The notes under the pieces are model-generated. The model searched no databases, was not told the origin of the DNA, and saw only the letters and a program-made list of their open reading frames with translations. The translations under genes and the position numbers were made by a program. Positions 16,146 through 62,514 of a DNA stretch of 64,000 bases are shown in pieces; the stretch's first letter is position 1; each line of letters starts with the position of its first letter. This DNA comes from Massalongia carnosa (lineage: Eukaryota): NCBI GenBank assembly GCA_965645245.1, contig OZ287075.1, forward strand, positions 1,798,001-1,862,000, given 5' to 3'.

Positions 16146-16863
16146 TTTGAGCACCTAATAGCGGATATGCGCCCAACGATTGAATGAGCCCGGGTGGAGG
16201 GAGATATGTTAGCAGATTTTCTATGGGGTACAAATATTGTTGAAGTCGCAGGAGAAGAGTTGTGGCTATATACCCTGTAAATTATCTCATACGCATATTA
16301 AGCACATTTTACATCCGTAACTTCCGGAACCAACTTCCCATGTAACGTTAATCCATCACTAAGTTCATCGCCTGCTGCAACTTTAAAAGCGGGAAGCGGC
16401 TTTTCCACCCAAATATCCTCCAGTCTAATTCCATTACCATCATATCATATCAATTGGTTTTGATAGGCGTGGTGAAAACCCCGCGCCGAGTGAGGTCATG
16501 TTATTAGTATGACATTGATTGAGAGCAAACTTTGATCAAGATGCGCTTAAGTAATGTAGAAAATCTTTGTTTCACTTCGCTTCAGCCGACCACTTGCAGC
16601 GGCTAACTTAGTTAGTCTTTTGACTAGAATTGTGTCTTTTGCCCAGTAAGGCTGAACGCCGCAATAATTACACATTTTCATTTGCCTACTCATCGATCGA
16701 TTTCTCTTATGTTTTGATAAATAGTGATGAAGATAAACCGAGCATATCTAAATGAAAATCAACCTTCAGGTTTTAAAAGTAGAAGTAGATAATAGACTAA
16801 TTACGGAAGTTAGTGATAGATTCTAACTTACTGAAAAACCTTAAATTTAAATTTGTTTACATA

Positions 16864-18805
16864 ATCGTGCTAGACCACTTTCGGAATGCAGAGAGCACCC
16901 CTTAGTGCTTACCGGCTCAAAGACGCTACCGGCTCAAAGACGCATTTTTCAACACCTCAACATTAAAAAAATCAGACCTTCATGAAAAGACGTCCAAATA
17001 GCTTCATTTCGGGTTTAAAATCTACTGCTCAGTCTGTTCTACTAACAGGCCCTGCCCTAGTAAAAACCGGACGTTGTCTAACTGGGTTGATGAGGCCTTT
17101 TTCCCCTTATTAGCCTCCCTTTGTTCCTTTCGTCTAGCCTTTTCTTCCTCTTTTTTTTGACGAATTGAACATAATTCTCTACATTGACTGACTTTTATGA
17201 CTCCACCCTTTGCAGCTACCTGACCCCCGAGAGCGGCCCGACTTTTACGCGATGTGGTGGCTTTTTGCACTTGCTGAAGGTCCCGCGTAGTCAAATCTAG
17301 GGTGTTGGCGGAGGTGATGGAGGCCCTAATAAATTTCTGAAAACCGTCCACTGTTTTTTTATCCATCCATCCACCGATCGGCCCGGCCGCGGTCAATGCC
17401 CTTTGCAATTTGTGACCGAATTTTCTGATTGATTCGGGGCCTCGAGGGGTGCGCTCATGAAATTGAAGAGGTAGGGGGCTCGGGGTGCGGGGTTCATTCC
17501 TAATTTCCAAGGCTGCAGCTTGCTTCTGACGAATGACGTCGAGTACCATGTTCGGATTGAATGGGACGATGCCGGTGGTCCTGAATGCATGACGAATAGT
17601 AGATGATTTGAATGTCTTGTTGCGAAATTCCTGGAATGCGGCTAAAAATTCCAATTTTCCAAATTCCGTGTCTCCCATTCGTATCGCATGATCAATGGCC
17701 TCAGCATGATAGTGTTTGTACGGCTGAAAAACACCTACATCTAACGGCTGAGTCAAATGAGTAGAATGTGCTGGAAGACGAAATAGAACGATCTGATTTT
17801 CAGTGGCCAGCTTCAAAAACGGAATGGTTGAATGAGACCCAAACCCGTCGATGACTAGAAGTAGCCAAGCTCCACGTCTTTTAGTCCGTGTATGCTCGAT
17901 GAAATGACGAAGCCAATCCATGGCTAAATCGTCATTTGAATAGCCGGTCTCGCTGGTCCCAATCAACGTCTCTCCGTCGAGATCGTTGTGTTGACACCAT
18001 TTATGAAGAATATGAATACCCGAAAGAATAAGTAATGGTGGAATAACGTCACCGGCCGAGCTGATACACTCTACAGAAGTAATGTAGTCACGATTATCCG
18101 GATCAGTCATACGAAGAGGCTTTCGTGGGTCCAAGGTGATTACTATTTGAGCTCGTCCGCATCCAATTCGAAAGCCTGTTTCGTCCATATTCCATACATC
18201 CAGCTCCGTTATTCCCTTTTCCCTCATCACCCTTTCTAATTTGCTGAAATATTCAACCATATCGTTAACGTCGTGACTATTTTTTCGATCGACTGCGAGA
18301 GGCTTCTGTTTTCGTACATGAAGCTCGGGATTTCGATCAAGAAATCGCTTCAGCCACTGATGACCAAGAGTACGATTCTCAAAACGAATCAGATAATTTG
18401 CAGCCCCCACGATCAATTTGGGTCGCGCACACATGTTGGCCTTGTCCAATCGCTCGATGTAGTCACGAACAGCTTGTTCTTGCTCATCCGTCAGAGCTTT
18501 GTTGGTACTAGGTCGACTGCTTTTGGAGTTGCCTCCATTCCATCGTTTTTGAACCGTACGAGGGGCAACGTCAAAAGCTATAGCTGCAGCTCGACAATTA
18601 GTATACAAACCATCATGTAACGCGTCAATTGCACTGTCAATTCGATCCTCGATAGCTGAATATGAATTGACCATTATGTTGTTGATTGTTGACGTGTCGA
18701 AGTTGAGGTGTAAAATGTTGAAAATGCGTCTTTGAGCCGGTAGCGTCTTTGAGCCGGTAAGCACTAAGGGGTGCTCTCTGCATTCCGAAAGTGGTCTAGC
18801 ACGAT
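16864..18805 (-). mobile_element. Fot1/pogo-family DNA transposon, full-length (1942 bp)
   Basis: Perfect 85-bp TIRs (16864-16948 and 18721-18805, starting ATCGTGCTAGACCACTTTCGG), each with two copies of TACCGGCTCAAAGACGC. TA duplication on both sides. Confidence 0.96.
17022..18674 (-). CDS. pogo/Fot1 transposase (HTH-CENPB plus DD35D), intact, 550 aa
   Basis: Uninterrupted ORF with WNMDETGF, LVIDGFGSH and TQPLDVG; 35 residues between the 2nd and 3rd Asp. Confidence 0.95.
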   Translation of the reverse strand: MVNSYSAIEDRIDSAIDALHDGLYTNCRAAAIAFDVAPRTVQKRWNGGNSKSSRPSTNKALTDEQEQAVRDYIERLDKANMCARPKLIVGAANYLIRFENRTLGHQWLKRFLDRNPELHVRKQKPLAVDRKNSHDVNDMVEYFSKLERVMREKGITELDVWNMDETGFRIGCGRAQIVITLDPRKPLRMTDPDNRDYITSVECISSAGDVIPPLLILSGIHILHKWCQHNDLDGETLIGTSETGYSNDDLAMDWLRHFIEHTRTKRRGAWLLLVIDGFGSHSTIPFLKLATENQIVLFRLPAHSTHLTQPLDVGVFQPYKHYHAEAIDHAIRMGDTEFGKLEFLAAFQEFRNKTFKSSTIRHAFRTTGIVPFNPNMVLDVIRQKQAAALEIRNEPRTPSPLPLQFHERTPRGPESIRKFGHKLQRALTAAGPIGGWMDKKTVDGFQKFIRASITSANTLDLTTRDLQQVQKATTSRKSRAALGGQVAAKGGVIKVSQCRELCSIRQKKEEEKARRKEQREANKGKKASSTQLDNVRFLLGQGLLVEQTEQ

Positions 18806-19147
18806 TATAACTTCTCTTCGAACTTTATCATAAACAGGTTGTGTAGTTGAGTGATAGTAACATTGCTACCATTCCGGTTCAGCTATACGATCATATCGCC
18901 AGTTCAAGACTCGGTCGTCGGCCACGAATTACTAATTAAACAAAGAAGAGACATACGAAGTTGTAGCGGACAGGCCTCGTCATGCCAGCTCTCTATCCCT
19001 TAAATTTGATCTAATCTATCATTTATTGTACATAGATCTTAACATCCAACGGAAACAATCACTCACTGCTACTTTGAAACTCTTTTTACTACTTGAAATT
19101 CGTTTATTGTTTTCCGAATTAAAGCTCTCTAGAAGGAACCTTTTGCT

Positions 19148-20445: not shown

Positions 20446-21774
20446 CAGTCCCGTGCCAAAAGTCTGCGGCCCAACCCGTGATTTCGCGTTTTCAACTCAT
20501 CAACCCCCTATCTTCCACCTCATCATTTCACCATGCTTCGTGCTTCTTTGACCCCCATAAGTGGTAATCGGCCTCGTAACACTGAATTGACGCCATATCA
20601 ACGTGGTATGATTGTTGGGGCCCAGGCGTTGGGGCACACACCGACCGAGATTGGGAAGACTCTTAATTTCACTAAATCGACCGTGCAGAGCCCCATTCAG
20701 AAGCACTCAGTTCGCAACGACGGCGTGTCTAAATCACGTTCTGGACGGCCTGAAGTGCTGTCAGAACGCGATCGACGTTATATCATCAAGCATGCACGAA
20801 TCAATCCACGAATCACTTATGCACAAATCAAACTAGAAGTGGGGCTCGGCTGCAGTCGTACGACTATTTATCGGGCACTCAAACTGTATGGTTTAACCAA
20901 CTGGGTGGCTAAAAAACGACCTTTATTGACGCCTGAGGTGGCCAAGAAACGATTGGATTGGTGCTTGCTGCGGCGTGAGTGGACTTTTGAGCAGTGGTCA
21001 AGAGTTATATGGTCAGATGAGTGCTCGGTGGAAAAGGGGTCAGGAAAACAGCGTCAGTGGGTGTTCAGATTGCCGAAAGAAAAATGGAATAAAGAGATGA
21101 TACAACCTGTCCCCAAAGGCAAAGGAGTCAGTGTCATGGTCTGGGCAGCTTTTTGGGGAGATGACAGGTCAGATCTTTACAAATTGGCTCGTGATTTTGC
21201 TGCGAAGAAGATGGGGTACTCGGCGAACTCATATATGGAATTATTGAACGATAATCTGCTTGGAATTTGGCAACCGGGCCTCATTTTCATGCAGGATAAC
21301 GCACCTATACATAAGGCTAAAAAGGTGATGGAATGGTTCAATGAGAACGGCATAGAGGTCATCGATTGGCCCCCCTATTCACCTGATTTAAATCCCATCG
21401 AGCACGTTTGGTATGTGCTCAAAAAGCTCGTCTATCAAGTCAACCTGAACATAGATTTGGTGATCGGCAGTGATGAAACTGTTCGTGAGGTACTTTGGAA
21501 AGCGTTAGAAGAAGCCTGGACGTTGATAGATGTGAAAATGATGAGGAGGTTAATAGAGAGCATGAATAAGAGGATAAAAGCGTGTATAGCGTCGGAAGGA
21601 TGGTATACTAAATATTAAAAATTAATTTTTGGGGGAATTCTTGTTTAGTATGTATGTAATCATTATGTAAAGTTTCAAGACATTTCAGCAATCGTGACGT
21701 GGTTGATTGTTGATTGAATAGAATGATTGAAATGTTGGTGGGGTGCGGGGCCGCAGACTTTTGGCCTAGTACTG
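20446..21774 (+). mobile_element. Tc1/mariner (Tc1-like DD34E) DNA transposon, 1329 bp
   Basis: 27-bp imperfect TIRs CAGT....GCCAAAAGTCTGCGGCCC (4 mismatches) with TA on both flanks. Confidence 0.93.
20533..21618 (+). CDS. Tc1-like transposase, intact, 361 aa
   Basis: HTH region with RSGRP, WSDE, FMQDNAPIH and WPPYSPDLNPIE; 34 residues between D and E. Confidence 0.94.
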   Translation: MLRASLTPISGNRPRNTELTPYQRGMIVGAQALGHTPTEIGKTLNFTKSTVQSPIQKHSVRNDGVSKSRSGRPEVLSERDRRYIIKHARINPRITYAQIKLEVGLGCSRTTIYRALKLYGLTNWVAKKRPLLTPEVAKKRLDWCLLRREWTFEQWSRVIWSDECSVEKGSGKQRQWVFRLPKEKWNKEMIQPVPKGKGVSVMVWAAFWGDDRSDLYKLARDFAAKKMGYSANSYMELLNDNLLGIWQPGLIFMQDNAPIHKAKKVMEWFNENGIEVIDWPPYSPDLNPIEHVWYVLKKLVYQVNLNIDLVIGSDETVREVLWKALEEAWTLIDVKMMRRLIESMNKRIKACIASEGWYTKY

Positions 21775-37345: not shown

Positions 37346-40300
37346 ATGACTGAACTAGCTTAGTAGGATACTCTTCATCAATTGCTTCTGCGCAAAATGC
37401 CATTTCAAGCTGAGTCGTTGAAGCAGCTGAGACTTTCTGAATATATTGACATCGTCCGACTGCGTAATTGCATCCATAATTGGTCTCACAGATGTAAGCT
37501 ATCGGCTAGCTAGCTAGCTCACTATATAAATCCATTTGGGCAGTCAAAGAAGCGCCTCAGAAAATAGAGAGGCTCTCAAAAGAGCTTAAATAGCTTTACA
37601 GTCTGCTTCAAAATGTTGCAGAACTTATTCCACTTCCTAATCATTACGGAAGATGGACAGCTTATGCAGTCCTTGCTGCAAGAATGTCAAGCAGAGCTCA
37701 CCAAAGTTGAGAAAACTACCGCACCCTTCCATGAAAGGCCTGGTAAAATCAAAGATTTGGCGAAACGTGTTCAATAGAAACAATGCATGACGGTATCCGA
37801 GACATTGGGTTCCTCACACGTAGGAGCCAGCAGCAGAGCAGCAGCTACGTAAACTTGATCATGGCATAAATCACCTGGAATCGATGCTTTCAGACCTCTC
37901 TTCGATAAAACTTGCCGAAAAATATATATCCACGCCACACATTGGTATAACATTCTGGGTTCGAAGCAATAATGCTTTCGTTGATGCTGATGAGATCAAG
38001 TTTCTATTCTGCAGTTTTGGACTCACGATCAGACTCTGCAAATTTTTAAAGAGAAAGTCAAGTTCCTGCTTAACGAGTACGAACAACTGATGGGCTTTTG
38101 TCATGAGGCTTCAGCTTTACGGATTCAACAAAGCCTTGAGAAGATGATCATGATCAATCGCAAGGACTTTCAAGTCATATGTTCAATTATCCTTGGACGT
38201 CGACACATATCCTAGGTCAAGCCGACGCAAAGGACGCAGTGGGGAGAATGTCTCATTTCAATACAATAGGACATCTTGAATTGAAATTTGAAAAGATTGA
38301 AGATGGTAATGGCTCACCGAGAAGCAATTCGAATACTTCTTTCCATTGTAACCCCAAATGATGATATTTATAGCACGGGTGTATATGCTTCGTCCGGAAA
38401 GGAGATGCAAATGGGATTTAATATTTTAATTATTCGGAGTTTACGTGAGATAAGAGTGTTTCCAGATCACCATTACGGCACAGCCTACCAGTTGCTCACC
38501 GCGCTGAGAAGAGACAATCTCCTCGACATATAGCTTATACTTTCTACTAAACAAGTTAGGCCTTAGGACAGAGATTGGGCAGGTCGGAACTTGCTAAGTG
38601 TATAATAACTCTCCTCATTTGAAGATGTAGCCATATCACTAATGTTTGCTGTTGTTTACCTGACAGGCTTCTCTGTAAATAATCAAAGTGGCAGAATTCT
38701 TGACTATCTGTTCCAAGCTGTTTGGGACTTAGAGAACTCTAGTCATCTGCTGTTCTATATCTGGATGAACTTTTTCAAAATTTGCGTGAGCGTCCTACGC
38801 TCATGAGAAAAGATCTCGAGCCATGGCTTCGAGCCTCCAGGCGAGCATTCGACGTAGATCAAACCTTAGACATTCATATTTTTTTCTCTGGTTCATTCTG
38901 CATAAAGCTAAGGCCAATTAAAACGTCGAAATTATTGATGATATTTGGAGTCATCTTATCAACCATGGAGTGAACAAGAACACCCAGACGAGTTAACCAC
39001 GGAGACTGCACTCCTCGAAACGGCACAATCAAACTGCAAAGATAGTTCGACGTGGACGCGAGTACTTCTGCAGTATGGCGCAGACTATTTGGCTGTAGGT
39101 ATTAACGGAAGTGGTCCCCTGCATTTGACGCTCAAGCGTGATACATATGCTTGTTCCCATATGCCCATCATTTCCCACGAAGAAATTCAAGAAAATCTGG
39201 TGCTCCTAATCCGAGGCGAATGTTCAATTGACGCTGTTGAGCACTTTAGACAGACTCCAACCGACATGGTACAAAAAATAAAATAAGCCAGTGCGCTAGA
39301 GCTGTCTGGATACGTGCGCTTATGGAAGTGGACAACTTTGATTGCAAGATGGAAAGGTTGTTAAGTGAGAAGGTAAGTTACAGCCTTGTGTTGTTTTTAT
39401 GATGATGATGATGATGATGATGATGATGTATTCATACTCCGATATGACACCGGCCGTAGGCCAGCCCATGCGGGCAAAGCTATCTAAGTTATGTTACATG
39501 GAAAACCTTTCACAGGTGTAAAAACCATGTCCCTTGATACCCGTCCGATGTGACTACGGGTCGACGTCGGGCGGGAGACGCAGTGCAAAAGACGTGTGGG
39601 AACTGTAATGCCTTGTGAAAAGAGAAGAAAGAAAGAAAGGTTCAACTATTGTTGATTTTACAATAATGTTGATGCTAGTGAGAATTGATTCAATAAGCCT
39701 GTTTTCATTAGCCAAGCAGTTAGTATCTTCAGAGTTTTTGATGATTTGGTCAGCTGCTGATAGTCGCTCGTGCCGGCGGCGCGAAACATCTGTTCTCTAT
39801 TGTCAATAAGTCTGCAGAACATGATTACATGTTCTGGAGTTTGTCTGTGCCAGCCACATGAGCAGGCCGGTGAGGTGACGGAGGGCACCCGGCGCTTGTA
39901 GGGGAAGTCAGCTAACCCGATCTTGCCAGTGCGGATTTGAGTTGTTAGAGCGCTTTCTGCCTTTTTTAGCTGCGTGTGTATTTTCAGCCGTTTTTTGCTC
40001 AGTGGGACTGATAGTGCTATGGAGGGTTCGATGACGCTATTTTGTTATGCGCACCACGAGTCGTTCCAGACCTTCATTTGTCGTGCTTTGATTGTTTGCA
40101 TCTGCTTGTGTCGGGCCGTTGCCGCAACGGTAGCTTCGCGGTGCCACGCCGGGTAGACTTCGAACCATGGTGGGTGTGCCTTTGGTGGTTGAACTATTTT
40201 TGAGTCGATCAGTAGTGTTGTTTTTATTGTTGAACGAGACGTACACATTATACGCGCTCGACTACTTTGGAAAAAGCGAGCTCATGCACACAAGAAAAAT

Positions 40301-49208: not shown

Positions 49209-49899
49209 AACTAATACCGGGACTCATTCTCTAGGTTAACACCCCCAAGTAAGCTAATCGTGCTAAACCACTTTCGGAATGGAATAAGGGATGCCCTTCC
49301 ATTCCGAAAGTGGTTTAGCACGATTAACTCGATTGAGTATAAATTTCCCTCGGACGCAGAAACAACTGAAGAAAACATTCTGAAATTCAGGTGTGTTTTA
49401 GACAGTCGTTTGATGCTTCCTCGATGATCGTTTTCAATGAATTGAGCTTCATTTCGTATTTACATTCGAAAGGCATGAAACAAATCCACTTCATCTACTT
49501 CAATCGATTGGATAGCTTCACCGGAGACCACCTCTTCATCTTGTGCCGGCTCATCATTCCTCTCTCTGCCCCGTCCTCGCCCTCGCCCCCGTCCTCGATC
49601 TCGCCTCCGCCTCCGCCTCCGCCCCCGGCCCCGCCTCGGAGGCCCATTTAACATCTCCTCGACATGTTCGAACTCTGATAACTCCCGTTGAGTAGAGTTA
49701 TCAGCCTTTCGTTGCTCTTTCCGATTGTAAACGCATCGCGATTGTAGGACGCCCTATGAAATGCATGCAGGTATGAGTGCGAAATTTTCGAAGTTCCAGC
49801 TCCGGAACGGATAAACTATCCAATCGGGTTAGCCTAGTTACTTGGGGGGTGTTAACCTAGGGTGTCAAGGTAGTGAAAAGGGGTGTCCCGGTATTAGTT
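49209..49899 (-). mobile_element. Internally deleted Mutator (MULE)-like element with long imperfect TIRs
   Basis: Inverted blocks AACTAATACCGGGAC, CTAGGTTAACACCCCCAAGTAA and GCTAAC.CGATTG at both ends. Internal minus-strand remnant GRP...NSTQRELSEFEHV followed by an RG-rich stretch resembles fungal MULE transposase C-termini. Confidence 0.65.
49257..49324. mobile_element. 68-bp TIR-only pogo/Fot1 micro-element nested in the MULE TIR
   Basis: Perfect 28-bp inverted repeats with a 12-bp spacer and TA on both sides. The first 25 nt match the TIR of the 16864-18805 element at 24/25 positions. Confidence 0.88.
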
Positions 49900-51793: not shown

Positions 51794-52439
51794 TACAAGA
51801 CCATAGCATAGGCATTCCGCCACAGAAATATGTTTGGATTATGTTGAATTAGAAAAAATTGTATGAAGCACTGCACAGAATCTGGTAGATCTGATTCATC
51901 TCGAGCCTCGTACGTCTATAAAATTCTTAGAAAGACGGGGGAAGAGCGCCTGATACGACGTCACCTACAACCGCAGCTATGTACTGCACTAGTAGGATGC
52001 AACAACCAACCCCTAACCCTATATTCCGCTAAGCAAATTCCCACCACCATCACTTAAAAAAAAAACCTCCCCAAAACCCTAAAATTCGCTCATAATTCCC
52101 TACCTAAACCTGCACTGCACTGCACCGCACTGCACTGTCAACCTTCAACTCGCTCTGCCATTTCCGCAACGAGAGATCATGTAGGTAGCTTGTGGGGTTC
52201 TCCCGGCCTCTGGCTTGTGGGGGAGAATTTGGTCCCTATGAATTAGGGGGGATATGGAGGGGAAGGAGAGGAGGGGGAGGGAGAAAGGAAAAAGAGAAGC
52301 ACGATCCTTTAAACCTTCTGCTCGTGGCGCAACTTTGTCATTCTTCTTCAAATCTAGTTTCTTTTCTTTTCCTTTTTTATCAGTTCTTCCTCTATCCGAC
52401 GAATACGAACTTATTCACTTGTCCAGAAATCCCAAAAGA

Positions 52440-53287
52440 TTCAAATGACTGCATCCTCCAACATTGCCAGCACCAAAATTGAATCGAAAACGGACATCAG
52501 AGTCTTAGGCTTGCAAGTTGACATCAAATTGAAATGAGGACCACACATTCGGAAAACGCAAAAGAAAATGGTCAAACAATTCATGGCATTGGCAAAAATC
52601 TCCACATCGACCTAGTGTGCCACCTTTACCAAAGCAAGGCAAGTTTACAGCGCCGTAGTGCGTCCGATCATGACATACGAGTCAACCGTACGGCACATAC
52701 CCAAAGAAGTCAAAAAGTCAAAAACGTCAACGAGTAAGCTCTCCGTCATGCAAGACAACTGTTGTCGCATCATAGCCGGCGACTTTAAAGCCACTTTCAT
52801 TTCAGTTCTTGAAGCAGAGACATACATAGCACATACATAGCACTCATAAATGCACACCTCGACACGTTACAGGCACAGATCAGACATCGACTCAGAGTCG
52901 AAGGTCAAGCGAAGGTCATTTCTTCCGCATGCAGTAAAATAATTAACAAACTCCGAGGCAAGTTAAATCGTAAACGCCTTCAAAAACTCATCTCGAAAGA
53001 ACTGAAGCATCTGGATCAAAAACCTACTGATCGACGCAAAAATCATTCAATCACTCACAGCACACTCATCATGATTCGAATCCTTCTCAGCGCATTTCTG
53101 CGAAGTCTTAGTAGCAGCGTCGGCTCGTCAAAAACAAATGCAGACAATTAAAGCACGACAGCTGAAAGTCTGAAACGACTCGTGACGCGCATATCAAATC
53201 GCGTCATCGAATCCTTCATAGCTCAATCAGTCTCACTGAGCAAAAACGACTGAAAATACACACGCTGCTCAAAAAGACAGAAAGCGC
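52440..53287 (+). mobile_element. Hypermutated LINE ORF2 fragment (RT C-terminal region)
   Basis: IRVLGLQVDIKLK*GPHI, ARQVYSAVVRPIMTY and VLEAET. Positions ~53060-53287 align by eye to the reverse complement of 39953-40180. Confidence 0.88.
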
Positions 53288-54951
53288 AGGTTAGCTTGCT
53301 TTGCTACGTAAGTATTTAGAAGAAGCAAGAAACAAAGAATCATGAATGAATTTGAAACCCAGAAAAGAAGGGAAAGAAGAAAAGCCATAAACCCCATTTC
53401 TTCTTCTTCTTCTTCTTCTTCTTCTTCGTTACTCTCATATTTTGTTTCCTAGGAACTCAAAGCCGAAGAAGGGAGAGAGAAAATATATAGCAGGAAAGAA
53501 TAATCAAAAAAGGAAAACAAACATATTTAACCCATGCATCTAGAATCGGTAGTTCGAGTGTATTCCCCCCCTCCTTCCCTTCGAGTGTAGGATTTGAACT
53601 GCCATGTAACCTATTTCCTCGTCGTAATAACAAGAAAAATCTGAAAGCGAAAGAATGCCTAGTTAACAGAGAAACTAGAAATCTCTTCTCATCGTCCAGT
53701 CGGCCCAAATATCTCCTATAGCTAATCGACGAACGAACGAAAGAACGAGCGAGCGAGCGATCGATTGATCGTGCTCCCCCTCCCCTCCCCTTCCATCAAC
53801 CCCGGGTGGGGGGAAGGGAAAGAGAAGACGAATGAGGGGATATAAGCAGCATTTATCTATTTGTCTTTCTACCTGTTATAACGTAGCGACCTAGATGAAG
53901 AACGATGAAGATGTAGGTATGTCGAGATCGAGATCGATATCTAGCAGGATTTTTACTTTACCTATCTACATACCTATGTTCTTCGTTGACGGGTCTACGA
54001 ACATGGTTTCATAAAGCTGAAAACGGAAACCAAAATTGCTTGTTCTACGGTTTCGTTTCTGCGTTTTCGGGTCTTTCCTGTTCTTCCCTTTCCGTCTTAG
54101 GGTAATTGTACGAAGAATAGGAGAGAGAATGAGAAGAAGGATGAGAAAAATGAGAAGAAGGGGGGGAGGGGGGGAGAATGAGAGAGAGGAAGTGAAAAAG
54201 AGATACTTACCTAGATATCTCAATTACTCTACAGCATCTTCATTATCATCCTCATTCTCATTTTCATCTTCAATCTTTTCCTTTCTCCCCCCTCCCCTTC
54301 ATCCTATCTTAACAAAAACCCATTTCTCCCCTCTTCCTCATATTCCTCCATCACCAACCTATCCATTCCCGCGTCCTAGTCAGCCTGTCAGCTATATCCA
54401 GCCCCAATGCCCCTACCCTTCCATCCCCCTCCGTTTCCTCTCGGGCAGTACCCTCCCTCGTTCGGCTCAGGCCTAGGGGAAGGGTTACTTTAGTTCCAAT
54501 TGCGGTTGCGCTCGCAATTGGCGATTTTTGGGTAGATGAATGGATATGTATATGAATGGACAGATGACGGTACGGGAGAAAAGGGGAGGGGGAGTGAGGG
54601 GAGACGAGGTATTGGGGATTTGGAGAATAGGAGAATTGGCTGGGATTAATTTTCTTTTTTCTTTCTTTCTTTTTGCTGGAGGGAAGGAAAAGGGTAAGCG
54701 AGTTTTTGAAGTTGAAGTTGAAGTTGAAATCGGAAAGGAAAGGGGATGATGCCAAAGTGCCAAATGTGGGTTATTTCCACCCCCCAACTCCTACAAGTGA
54801 GAGAGGAATGGAAATAAGGAAGGAAGGGGAGATGTGATACGATACGATATAAATGAAACGAAACGAAACTGTGAAGCTGGGGAAGTTTTGGTTTTTGTGG
54901 TTGGGCTCCCCCCCAACTCTTTAGTTTAAATGATAAAGTAGGTAGTAGGCT

Positions 54952-55219
54952 GGTAGGTAGGTAGGTAGGTAGGTAGGTAGGTAGGTAGGTAGGTAGGTAG
55001 GTAGGTAGGTAGGTAGGTAGGTAGGTAGGTAGGTAGGTAGGTAGGTAGGTAGGTAGGTAGGTAGGTAGGTAGGTAGGTAGGTAGGTAGGTAGGTAGGTAG
55101 GTAGGTAGGTAGGTAGGTAGGTAGGTAGGTAGGTAGGTAAGTAGGTAGGTAGGTAGGTAGGTAGGTAGGTAGGTAGGTAGGTAGGTAGGTAGGTAGGTAG
55201 GTAGGTAGGTAGGTAGGTA
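54952..55219. repeat. (GGTA)n microsatellite, ~67 units
   Basis: Near-perfect array with one variant unit at ~55140. Confidence 0.97.
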
Positions 55220-55573
55220 TGTAGGTGACTTGCTTGCTTGCTTGATCTATGGTTATTGGTATTGGTGTTAATATTTTCGGTTTCCTAGTTAAATATTATT
55301 TTTATCAAATAAAGGGAGGGGAGGGGTGAAAGAGGACTTAGGATGAGTAGCATTAGTATGTTCGAACACATATCTGAAGCGCTAGGTGGAGCGGCGGTAC
55401 AGCAGCAATAGGTATAATAAAACCTTACATGAAAATGCAAAGCTTAACGACAGATATGAACCCATTTTACTTCCTATGCCCCCTCACCCCCGGCCAGCCT
55501 ATCACGACAAAAACGCCTACCTGCCGCCTCCACATACCTCATGAATAAAAGCGAGCAAGCAATCACCTCCCTC

Positions 55574-59183: not shown

Positions 59184-60116
59184 TCGACTGGCCCCGTATG
59201 CTGGAGAGGAGCTTGGCATGCTAGATTTGTTTGCGCGGGGACCTGCATTCCATCGGCCTTCTGACCCCAGGGGTGTTTCTTCCACGTTCTGCCATTGGTT
59301 CATAGTTAATTTTTTTCCATTCTTCTAACTATCGTTTTCTACTTTTTCTCCGGATAAGCTTCCTGATTATGCATCGTAGTAGTTTCTCAAGCTAAAAAGA
59401 AAAGAACAAAAAAAAACCCCTTTACCTGAAAACCACCTCTGCCTGAGAATGGAAAGCTGAATAGAAAAATAACCCTGCTCCGAAAGATTCCGGAATGCGT
59501 CTACCAACTAGCTTTTGGTTTTTTTTTCCGTGTCGCTTCTGCCACACGCCGTCTGTCTTGTTGCTTCATTAGGTAGGTACCTAAGTATATACATACATAC
59601 ATAGCTAGACGTCGAATAAACACCACCCCTCACACCGCGTAGACTAATCCGGGCGAATTTGGATCTCTCCTTTTCGTTTTCTTTCCATTCCCCTATTTTC
59701 CTTTTTCTTCTTTTTCATCTTCTCCATATTTACTCTATAAAAAGCCCCCCCTCCCCTTTCCTAACAAAACCATAGGTTCCAAGAAAACCTACCTACCTAT
59801 ATATCTATCTCCAACCTGTATATTCTAGTATTCTAGAATCCTATTGTTGTTAGCCCATCTCCAACTCTTATGCTAGCTACATATGTATAGGGATGTATAA
59901 ATACGCAATTCATCCTCTTTTTAAAAAAAATTTTATTTTATCAAACTATGTTTTTCGCGCATCTAATTCCTCCCTTTTTATTCCATTTTCACATTTCTTC
60001 TTGCATATCACCCCCCCTCCCCCCTTGTTTCTATTCTCACTTTCTATGTATTCTTGATAATATCTGTCAGCCAGGTAGGTAGGTAGATCGCTTGAATACT
60101 ACTACTACTACTACTA

Positions 60117-61988
60117 TCCGTGCCGCGTAGCTGGCACTCAGTCCTGCAAACTGAGTGCCGAACACCCATATAACCGTTTCACCCATATAACCGAAATTTA
60201 AATACTTTGACCAACCACCTTGATAAATTATCATCAACATCATCATGTCTTCCACTTATCAGGAAACTGAGGCTCGAATTCAACTAGCTATTGATTATCT
60301 ATGAAAAAATCCTACAGCTAAAAGAGCTAAAATTGCGCGTCAATTCGACGTGCCTTCGCAGCGACTTCGTTTTCGACTTCAAGGTCATCCCCCCGCATCT
60401 GACGTACGAGGACTGCATGGACGTCGATTATCATCTGATCAAGACTTGGCCTTAGTCTTATATATTCAACGAATGATCGAATTAGGCCTTCATCCTCGTC
60501 TTCGAATGATAGAAGCAGCTGCCAATAAGTTGCTAATGCAGGGCTGGACTGATTCGACCCCACCACAACCATTGAGTCATGCATGGGCCACGCGATGGAT
60601 GAGTCGTCATTCTGAATCTCAGAAGATTAAACGCAAGCCTATTGCAGCCGTACGAAAGAATGCGGAGGACCCGGTCGTTTTACGAGCTCATTTTAATCAG
60701 TACAGTCAGATAGTGCATGAGCATGGCATATGTGATGAGGACAAATGGAATTTTGATGAGACGGGCTTTCGATTGGGCATCGCACGATCAGATTGGGTCA
60801 TTACTTTAGCAGATGACAAGCAGAAAAAGGTGTTTTCTAAAGATCCAGACAATCGTGAAAGTTTGACAGCCATCGAATGTATAAATGGCGCTGGGGGCAG
60901 CATTCCTTCATTTCTCATACTCAGTGGATTGATGATTTAAGGTTCATGGGCCGAAAATGATTTGAATGATGGAGTCATGCTTTCGACAGCCGAGACTGGT
61001 TATTCAAATGACTGGTTATCTATAGAATGGCTGAAGCATTTCGATAAGCACTCAAAGAGTCAAAAAGGGGCGTATCGACTGCTAATGATGGATGGTTATG
61101 GGTCGCATCATACTATTGAATTTATTGAGTACTGCAATGAGGCCAAAATTATCCCCTTCGGCCTGCCACCTCATACGACTCATCTGTTGCAACCATTGGA
61201 CGTCGTAGTTTTTCAGCCCCTGAAACATTGGCATGCTGAGGCGGTTAAGGATGCAATGGCCCATGGGGACGAGACGTTTAATAAGGTAGAATTTTTGAAT
61301 GCTTTCAGCTCGTTTCGAAATAAAGCATTCAAAATTTCGACTATAAAATCAGCATGGAAGGCCGTGGGCATCATTCCTTTCGATCCGTCCGCTGTATTCG
61401 ATAAATTGGGATCAGGGGCCTCGTACATTGAGGCCGATCCTTTGGCTGATATTTATGATCAAACACCTGATCATTCGGATAATGATCTTTCGGACCCGCA
61501 AACTCCGAAGAATTTGAGTGCTTTGCTTCAAGCTTCGTATGAAATTGAGGCTCAATATCCGAAATTCGTCAAAGGCGCTTTAGCATGTGCTCGAGAAAGC
61601 GAGCTGTTATCGGATCAATTAGCACTGACTAAAGCAGCCGAAAACGCTTGAAAGGTGAGGGCCAATCAGAGCAAGCATTACGTTCAAAAAGGAGGAGTTA
61701 TTCAGGTGGATCAATGCAGAAGAATGACTTTCGAGCGAAAGGAGGAAGAGGAGCAATTGGAGTCGGATCGTCAGAATAAGGCTGATCGTCAACAACGAAA
61801 GCGATGGGGGCCGATATTTAGGGATTTGAAACGGAAGATACCATATTATATAGTGAGTGGCTCGTATGGTTTATCAAAACGTTGATAACCTGATGTTTTT
61901 TGGCCTGTAGGTGAAATAGTGAAATTTTCGGTTATATGGGTGTTCGGCACTCAGTCCTGTGGACTGAGTGCCAGCTACGCGGCACGGA
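60117..61988 (+). mobile_element. Fot1/pogo-family DNA transposon (1872 bp) inserted in a (TAC)n microsatellite
   Basis: 60-bp TIRs (60117-60176 / 61929-61988, starting TCCGTGCCGCGTAGC), TA duplication, and (TAC)n on both sides. Confidence 0.94.
60245..61885 (+). pseudogene. pogo transposase with three in-frame stops and no frameshift
   Basis: WNFDETGF, MMDGYGSH and LQPLDVV; stops at 60302-60304 (TGA), 60938-60940 (TAA) and 61649-61651 (TGA), all in one frame. Confidence 0.9.
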
Positions 61989-62514
61989 TACTACTACTAC
62001 TACTATTACTATTACTACTAAGGACAACTACGATAGAAAAGCAGGCTTTTGGCTTAGATCTTGAAGAAAAAGGTAAAAAACAGAAGGGGGAAGAAGAATG
62101 AAGAGGAGGAAGAGGAGGGGGGAATGGGATGAGGGTAATAAATGAAATCACGAGGGTTTGAGAATCACCGGAAAGAAGAAAAATTAAAAGGATTGTTTGC
62201 TTCTTTCTTGTTTTTCTTTCTTACCCTTTCGATATACTAAATCCTACTCTAGAAAAAGCGCACTTCCCAAATATTATGTCGGGAAGCGGGAAAAAAAGAA
62301 AAAGAAAAAAAAGAAACTGAGTCATGTTGTATTGTATTATGGGAATTTTGATGGAGGAGAGAGGGGTTGGGTTTGGGTTTGGGTTTTTGTAATATGGGTT
62401 CTTTCTGGATTGATGAATTGATGGATTTTTTAGTGCTCCTAACAGATACCATGTTTTCATTTCCCTTTCTCCCTCACCTTATTCCCCTCGCTCCTTCCCC
62501 CAAAACCCCCAAAG

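Follow-up and report, generated by a model that had tools for sequence, protein, structure and literature searches.

N. crassa RIP follows the order CpA>CpT>CpG>CpC, and T. reesei also places CpC last, according to the relevant sections of PMC5496416; of all contexts, CpC is thus the one least favoured in those RIP systems considered here that have been studied by experiment. A survey of 1,239 genomes concluded, in its excerpted text, that RIP-like defences share a CpA preference (PMC12543289). For the lichen fungus Cladonia rangiformis, DNA transposons are described as largely spared in the sections of PMC12542154 on its repeats; since neither 'CpA' nor 'dinucleotide' occurs in the main text of that paper, the context there is not reported, and the excerpts of the two lichen papers, PMC12542154 and PMC13535494, give none. 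CpC>TpC is named merely as one of four possible classes in the pertinent part of PMC2621366, and CpC figures only as a minor or double mutation or as a plot colour in the excerpts of PMC8959702, PMC5555474, PMC5737583, and PMC5381539; 'CpC' does not occur in the main text of PMC7882544. The string 'CPC' in PMC5602860 and PMC9073689 was rejected as a dinucleotide, as it belongs to strain numbers. CpC-dominant RIP was not found in the article texts searched, and an earlier case is possible. Clutterbuck is said to have described, in 2011, varied RIP contexts across ascomycetes.

In the lichen-forming ascomycete Massalongia carnosa, by contrast, CpC is the dominant context of C:G>T:A change in a set of retroelement copies. 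The signature works like RIP, yet it is not canonical CpA RIP, and it is real and reproducible within the genome. The window analysed here is a stretch of 64,000 nucleotides (contig OZ287075.1, positions 1,798,001 to 1,862,000), and its mutated LINE copy comprises the following features.

52395..53287, plus strand: fragment from inside a LINE of subfamily A (family with APE endonuclease plus RT), covering a C-terminal portion of ORF2; 87.3% to consensus A
52995..53287, plus strand: hardest-hit section of the fragment, 1-3 CC/GG per 100 bases
52535..52537, plus strand: TGA stop replacing the family TGG of the K-W-G motif, a minus-strand CpC>TpC change

Homology begins at 52395, slightly left of the 52440 given by the original prediction. 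Stops and small indels break the reading frame, whereas intact relatives code for both enzymes, endonuclease and reverse transcriptase (Pfam domains RVT_1 and Exo_endo_phos on an intact family copy). An 11-base tandem duplication within the fragment, at 52815-52836, also shifts the frame. The best 40 of 275 candidate LINE relatives were scored, and the reference for the window copy was the consensus of the 29 best other subfamily-A copies in the genome. These 29 lie at 93-99% to their consensus and the window copy at 87%; CpC hypermutation is absent from all 29. Against this multi-copy consensus, the comparison proposed in the original prediction, CpC sites do mutate more often than the others: the window copy has 98 substitutions, of which 65 are C>T or G>A, and by 3′ neighbour C>T changes affect 42/94 CpC, 8/134 CpA, 6/103 CpG, and 9/96 CpT sites. 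With the other CpN sites pooled, 42/94 stands against 22/336 (Fisher p = 9e-17 for CpC versus other contexts). CpC sites are changed 5 to 8 times as often as other CpN.

The two strands of the window copy are hit alike, as had been claimed (CpC losses plus 28/60, minus 14/34; strand difference p = 0.67). Isolated CC dinucleotides became TC in 24 cases, CT in 1, and TT in 2, with 30 unchanged, and the imbalance of 24 to 1 identifies the 5′ C of CC as the target. By consensus bin, CpC losses reach 13/22 and 7/10 in bins 2100-2400 versus 3/18 in bin 1650; the consensus region matching 52995..53287 is a mutation peak in other subfamily-A copies too. The codon changes originally proposed (K-W-G>K-*-G, YGS>YES, ATP>ATF, and DTK>DIK) all hold against the 29-copy consensus. 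The right flank of the fragment is also somewhat CC-poor (index 0.52, versus 0.93 for the window), and there is no mutated partner close by: one copy lies 13 kb off and another about 55 kb off, and both are clean.

The prediction had drawn its pattern from an alignment with a second copy, near 40 kb, taken as a less mutated sister.

39411..40215, minus strand: 3′ fragment, young and unmutated, from LINE subfamily B, a negative control, 99.3% to consensus B, CpC 0/80

Over 266 bases (39950-40215, minus strand) the two are 78.6% identical, and the CpC bias reported from that alignment is indeed there, with C>T or G>A at 14/26 CpC, 4/40 CpA, 3/37 CpG, and 6/26 CpT sites. Every change cited as an example exists, three TGG>TGA included, but at least gccc>gctc is a difference between subfamilies. 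The 40-kb copy is not a sister: it belongs to subfamily B, at 99.3% to its own consensus, and the window copy to subfamily A, so the pairwise comparison is partly confounded and the 40-kb copy is ruled out as an ancestor. The alternative that the 40-kb copy is the derived state is likewise ruled out; both subfamily consensuses retain the CC sites and an open frame, which makes the window copy the derived one.

The CpC signature recurs on other contigs, both in further LINE copies and in LTR elements, where the prediction had suggested looking. After removal of position duplicates and exclusion of segments with <170 bases or >8% transversions, 15 of 103 LINE segments were called hypermutated (p<0.001), on six contigs (C1, C9, C16, C18, C19, and C21) and in both subfamilies, A and B. 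These 15 have lost CpC at 1250/1718 sites (73%), CpT at 499/1712 (29%), CpA at 233/2201 (11%), and CpG at 130/1705 (8%); in the remaining 88, the values are 227/19443 (1.2%), 210/19790 (1.1%), 520/25941 (2.0%), and 325/19642 (1.7%), respectively. The fraction 15/103 is no genome-wide rate, since mutated copies were located by targeted pattern searches and clean ones by similarity rank, which yields mostly clean, young copies. Nor are the 15 segments 15 independent events, as they include pieces of one element, one duplication on C21, and copies with shared sites. Between some copies mutated sites are shared beyond chance (odds ratios 12-26), in part because mutation peaks in a common consensus region.

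Less typical copies were also seen. A copy on C2, below the p<0.001 cut for hypermutation, is lightly mutated and strand-biased (minus 9/43, plus 2/74, p = 0.002) and looks like the outcome of a single RIP round. A few older LINE copies (L042/L077 at C6:1822192, L030, and L073) show a mild CpA excess, 30/224 CpA versus 4/154 CpC, hinting at a second, weak process of CpA type. At 782-1408 the window holds a 208-codon open frame that looks like the 3′ terminus of yet another LINE subfamily, with CC depletion too slight to flag.

As RIP would demand, the directional C:G>T:A excess lies in repeated DNA, both in the window copy and in the heaviest LINE copy, which has 545 C:G>T:A changes versus 50 reverse transitions. 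The context preferences of the mutated copies also bear on UV damage at dipyrimidines, conceivable in a sun-exposed lichen because both preferred targets, CC and CT, are dipyrimidines. UV mainly mutates C preceded by a pyrimidine. Here the 5′ base of the target C is without effect (5′ pyrimidine odds ratio 0.91, p = 0.41), and it is on this point that UV fails. In addition, TpC is a product rather than a target, CC in the heaviest copy having become TC 190 times, CT 10 times, and TT 32 times, and neighbouring DNA retains its CC. We find UV barely credible as a source. The +2 base has a modest effect (CCA 381/433, CCG 359/448, CCT 264/366, and CCC 154/310).

An LTR element shows when the changes arose. 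On C21, a Gypsy element set against one near-intact relative has changed at 484/622 CpC, 282/648 CpT, 118/709 CpA, and 79/437 CpG sites, with CpC equally affected on the two strands (218/275 and 266/347); values against six further relatives are similar. Its two LTRs differ at 12/14 surviving CpC, 15/57 CpT, 6/45 CpA, and 5/39 CpG sites, and this divergence at CpC places the mutation after insertion. Both properties are pertinent to the possibility that an APOBEC/AID-like single-strand DNA deaminase edited retroelement cDNA during transposition, an enzyme class the original prediction had left as an option. Such enzymes typically produce dense clusters of C>T changes, and the families known to be affected are all retroelements, none of 30 pogo loci being CpC-rich. 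Still, cDNA editing fails on strand symmetry and on the LTR pair of one element diverging at CpC after insertion. APOBECs, moreover, read the 5′ neighbour, which has no effect here. A search for the APOBEC3 family was blank, but so was its control, which makes the result uninformative. The deaminase option fits poorly, and we regard it as very unlikely.

Also on C21, a 115-kb stretch (1180000-1295000) forms a repeat-rich block, possibly centromeric or heterochromatic, in which elements are nested and in which a 50-base tandem array and an ~8 kb inverted duplication (1188380-1196097 / 1230985-1239198) also occur. In several tracts of this stretch, each multi-kb long, CC observed/expected is 0.04-0.2 and the GC content is close to 30%, and a tract of like composition is found on C16. 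Clean copies are interspersed with saturated ones inside the block. Wherever a relative turned up, the CC-poor tract lay in a repeat; the changes may be confined to repeats, as judged for single-copy flanks from composition. One CC-free element, at C21:1.262 Mb, gave as a query a single match at 69%, to a locus whose frames resemble those of LTR retroelements, the rest being short. Canonical RIP is recognized by CpA>TpA dominance and a positive composite index; here CpA stands at 11% versus 73% for CpC, and the composite RIP index is negative on every tract tested (-0.83 to -1.07) because the products are TpC/GpA. The ratio (CpC+GpG)/(TpC+GpA), in turn, drops from about 0.9 to 0.02-0.34 in mutated tracts.

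The C21 LINE copies at 1.193 and 1.232 Mb represent a single duplicated event, and the later duplicate agrees on sites, with 295 mutated in both, 55 in neither, and 5 discordant. Such common mutated and spared sites argue against an assembly artefact, in which base-calling errors at modified cytosines would have produced the pattern. Read support for the mutated window copy does consist of shared sampled words only. Even so, four sequencing runs, one from a second study and the best possibly from the source sample, contain 0.26-0.62 of these words, and just 62 of 861 31-mers of the window copy occur in other fetched loci. With so few 31-mers common to other loci and the words nevertheless present in four runs, and with the signature also in an unrelated public assembly (L203, below), an artefact is highly improbable.

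The process looks switched off, as only older copies are mutated. With the transversion rate as a rough proxy for age, one inflated by subfamily divergence, 0/76 segments at <1.5% transversions are hypermutated versus 15/27 above. After the C21 inverted duplication, the copies gained 23 CpA, 7 CpT, 6 CpG, and 5 CpC differences, with no fresh CpC burst. Targeting is also patchy, since most repeats, including 12 of the 27 older LINE segments, escaped untouched. A young DNA transposon family serves as a further control.

16861..18808, minus strand: intact pogo-like DDE transposon (DDE_1 plus HTH_Tnp_Tc5) of a young family with no CpC excess, a negative control

Fifteen other pogo copies are >=99.8% identical to this element. 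In 30 pogo loci, from the best 40 of 209 candidates, no CpC-rich copy was seen, with <=8 of about 200 CpC sites changed per locus; the sampling of DNA transposons comprises pogo loci only and is not grounds for calling DNA transposons spared. Two pogo copies at C6:1639094-1642936, head to head and 98% identical, should be a strong RIP substrate, yet they are unmutated. The window also carries a Tc1-like transposase frame of 378 codons (20482-21618), another pogo-like element, which has inverted ends and a single internal stop (60097-62008), a MITE-like remnant formed by a 78-base palindrome of two ends like those of the element at 16861 (49252-49329), and a long four-base microsatellite (54938-55226).

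What might have written the signature? RID, DIM-2, and DNMT5 homologues, the genes that the original prediction had wished to see inspected, were all found. The PF00145 profile gave six matches, corresponding to four genes of RID, DIM-2, and DNMT5 type: a DIM-2-like gene on C6 with a BAH match and long open frames; a gene on C18 that is DNMT5-like by its architecture; and two of RID type, long and short. The long RID, on C15, has open frames and is intact; the short one is not.

C17:566527 (L038:2852-4479): short RID paralogue, a pseudogene, PF00145, E 2e-28

The short RID has a RID-type C5-MTase domain with the PPC catalytic motif and the common N-terminal region, and it shares 37-48% identity with RID-like proteins of long and medium length. 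In a quick 119-row tree it belongs to a separate 22-row clade (SH-aLRT 97), apart from the long RID. Its variable region, presumably the target-recognition loop as in bacterial enzymes, reads LIAT, versus C-[IVM]-TT in long RIDs. An in-frame stop at codon 390 of 503 leaves no intact frame through the final motifs, and two aspartates invariant in 12/12 aligned short-clade proteins are replaced. No other letter was seen at the stop in any of four sequencing runs, which represent at most three samples from two studies, two of the runs possibly being the source (X5 and X6, with small shares, were left out). In the run from the second study, a second individual, there is also a frameshift, and 15 changes fall within exons (5 silent, 9 missense, and 1 nonsense). 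Derivation of the stop from TGG by the CpC process was dropped as an idea, as short-clade relatives carry other residues there. Among the lichen RID-like gene models, P0033 and P0045 have added exonuclease, HRDC, and PMC2NT Pfam domains, probably from merged neighbouring genes.

Intact short RIDs exist in other lichen fungi. Of the 24 loci that a metagenome scan yielded, six carry the short RID in intact form, and the three intact loci that were compared are syntenic with C17. In one of these assemblies (L203:1-3625, JAABUQ010000063.1), an AT-rich insertion that measures at least 3.6 kb and contains 2 CC/GG in 3,300 bases lies upstream of a short RID that is intact, at a distance of about 6.4 kb. 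L200, 99.5% identical across the remaining 18 kb, lacks it, and L205 matches L200 at that place; the insertion is therefore polymorphic. No comparable CC-free tract was seen in the other 23 loci of the scan. The L203 tract has no Pfam match, although one of its frames holds a fragment that we take to be reminiscent of a RecQ-type helicase motif. It is one chance sighting by composition, read without an ancestral copy, and it could be an element mutated beforehand and then moved; the link between short RID and CpC rests on two species.

RIP-type genome defence with an altered target, preferring CpC, most probably explains the signature. The changed spectrum affects both strands, several families, and several contigs, acted after insertion, and is restricted to older copies. 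Homology sensing, timing in the sexual cycle (RIP acts after fertilisation and before meiosis), and a methyltransferase as the agent are what we infer. Repeated DNA would be recognised by homology sensing; a C5-cytosine methyltransferase of the RID/DIM-2 kind would modify C, and deamination would convert it to T, with mainly the first C of CC targeted, CT less so, and CA or CG little. Several rounds would leave both strands mutated. Older LINE and LTR copies would have been attacked in this way once inserted, and the process would have ceased or lost strength by the time LINE and pogo elements underwent their recent expansions.

The short RID on C17 is the likeliest writer, a hypothesis that we hold tentatively. 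It is favoured because the halt in M. carnosa goes with a short RID that has been lost, and a fresh CC-free insertion in another lichen fungus goes with one that is present. It is possible, but somewhat doubtful, that the writer was instead the long RID or DIM-2 with a CpC/CpT preference, the short RID being a bystander; this would include a variant in which DIM-2 methylates heterochromatin at CpC and the methylated DNA then deaminates slowly, outside the sexual cycle. Both genes have long open frames, the heaviest tracts are concentrated in the repeat-rich C21 block, and a DIM-2-dependent RIP route exists in N. crassa, according to the pertinent section of 10.1101/344036. In that same section, however, DIM-2 RIP has a stronger CpA preference than that of RID, and in the excerpt of PMC7979813, CpA methylation exceeds CpC in Pyricularia. 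Under an intact long RID and DIM-2, recent repeat change in M. carnosa leans to CpA (2.0%, versus 1.2% for CpC), and clean copies sit beside saturated ones within one C21 block. Returning to the short RID, one can envision that in some lichen fungi RID was duplicated and the copy retuned to CpC; where it is intact, polymorphic insertions are stripped of CC, and here its loss stopped CpC-RIP and let LINE and pogo elements expand. This fuller scenario falls somewhat short of probable.

If true, a short RID first retuned and then lost would amount to a natural gain-and-loss experiment tying the target-recognition region of RID to RIP context. The case bears on what sets that context and on whether RID itself writes the mutation, questions made testable by a pair of RID paralogues whose recognition regions differ, with one of the pair tracking the CpC signature. 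Standard indices can miss CpC-dominant RIP, and so fungi scored as RIP-free may not be.

Among described systems, RIP in N. crassa and T. reesei, which depends on RID and DIM-2, resembles this one in its C:G>T:A changes in repeats, on both strands once several rounds have passed and dependent on the dinucleotide, its AT-rich dead transposons, and its RID and DIM-2 genes; it differs in that the order here is CpC >> CpT > CpA > CpG and most repeats escaped. As with the signatures in the excerpted text of PMC12543289, C>T change is directed at repeats in Pezizomycotina and recent activity can be separated from ancient, yet the CpA preference drawn as a conclusion there is missing in M. carnosa. 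Cladonia rangiformis is likewise a lichen fungus with low-GC retrotransposons and RID and DIM-2 homologues; its RIP, scored by GC content, covers 37.5% of windows in the sections of PMC12542154 describing it, and the process is apparently far rarer here. The same base, the first C of CC, is modified by M.CviPII and M.CviQIX, chlorovirus C5 methyltransferases; as described in the corresponding part of PMC9636781, these enzymes are viral and methylate only, and thus offer a chemical precedent rather than a relative.
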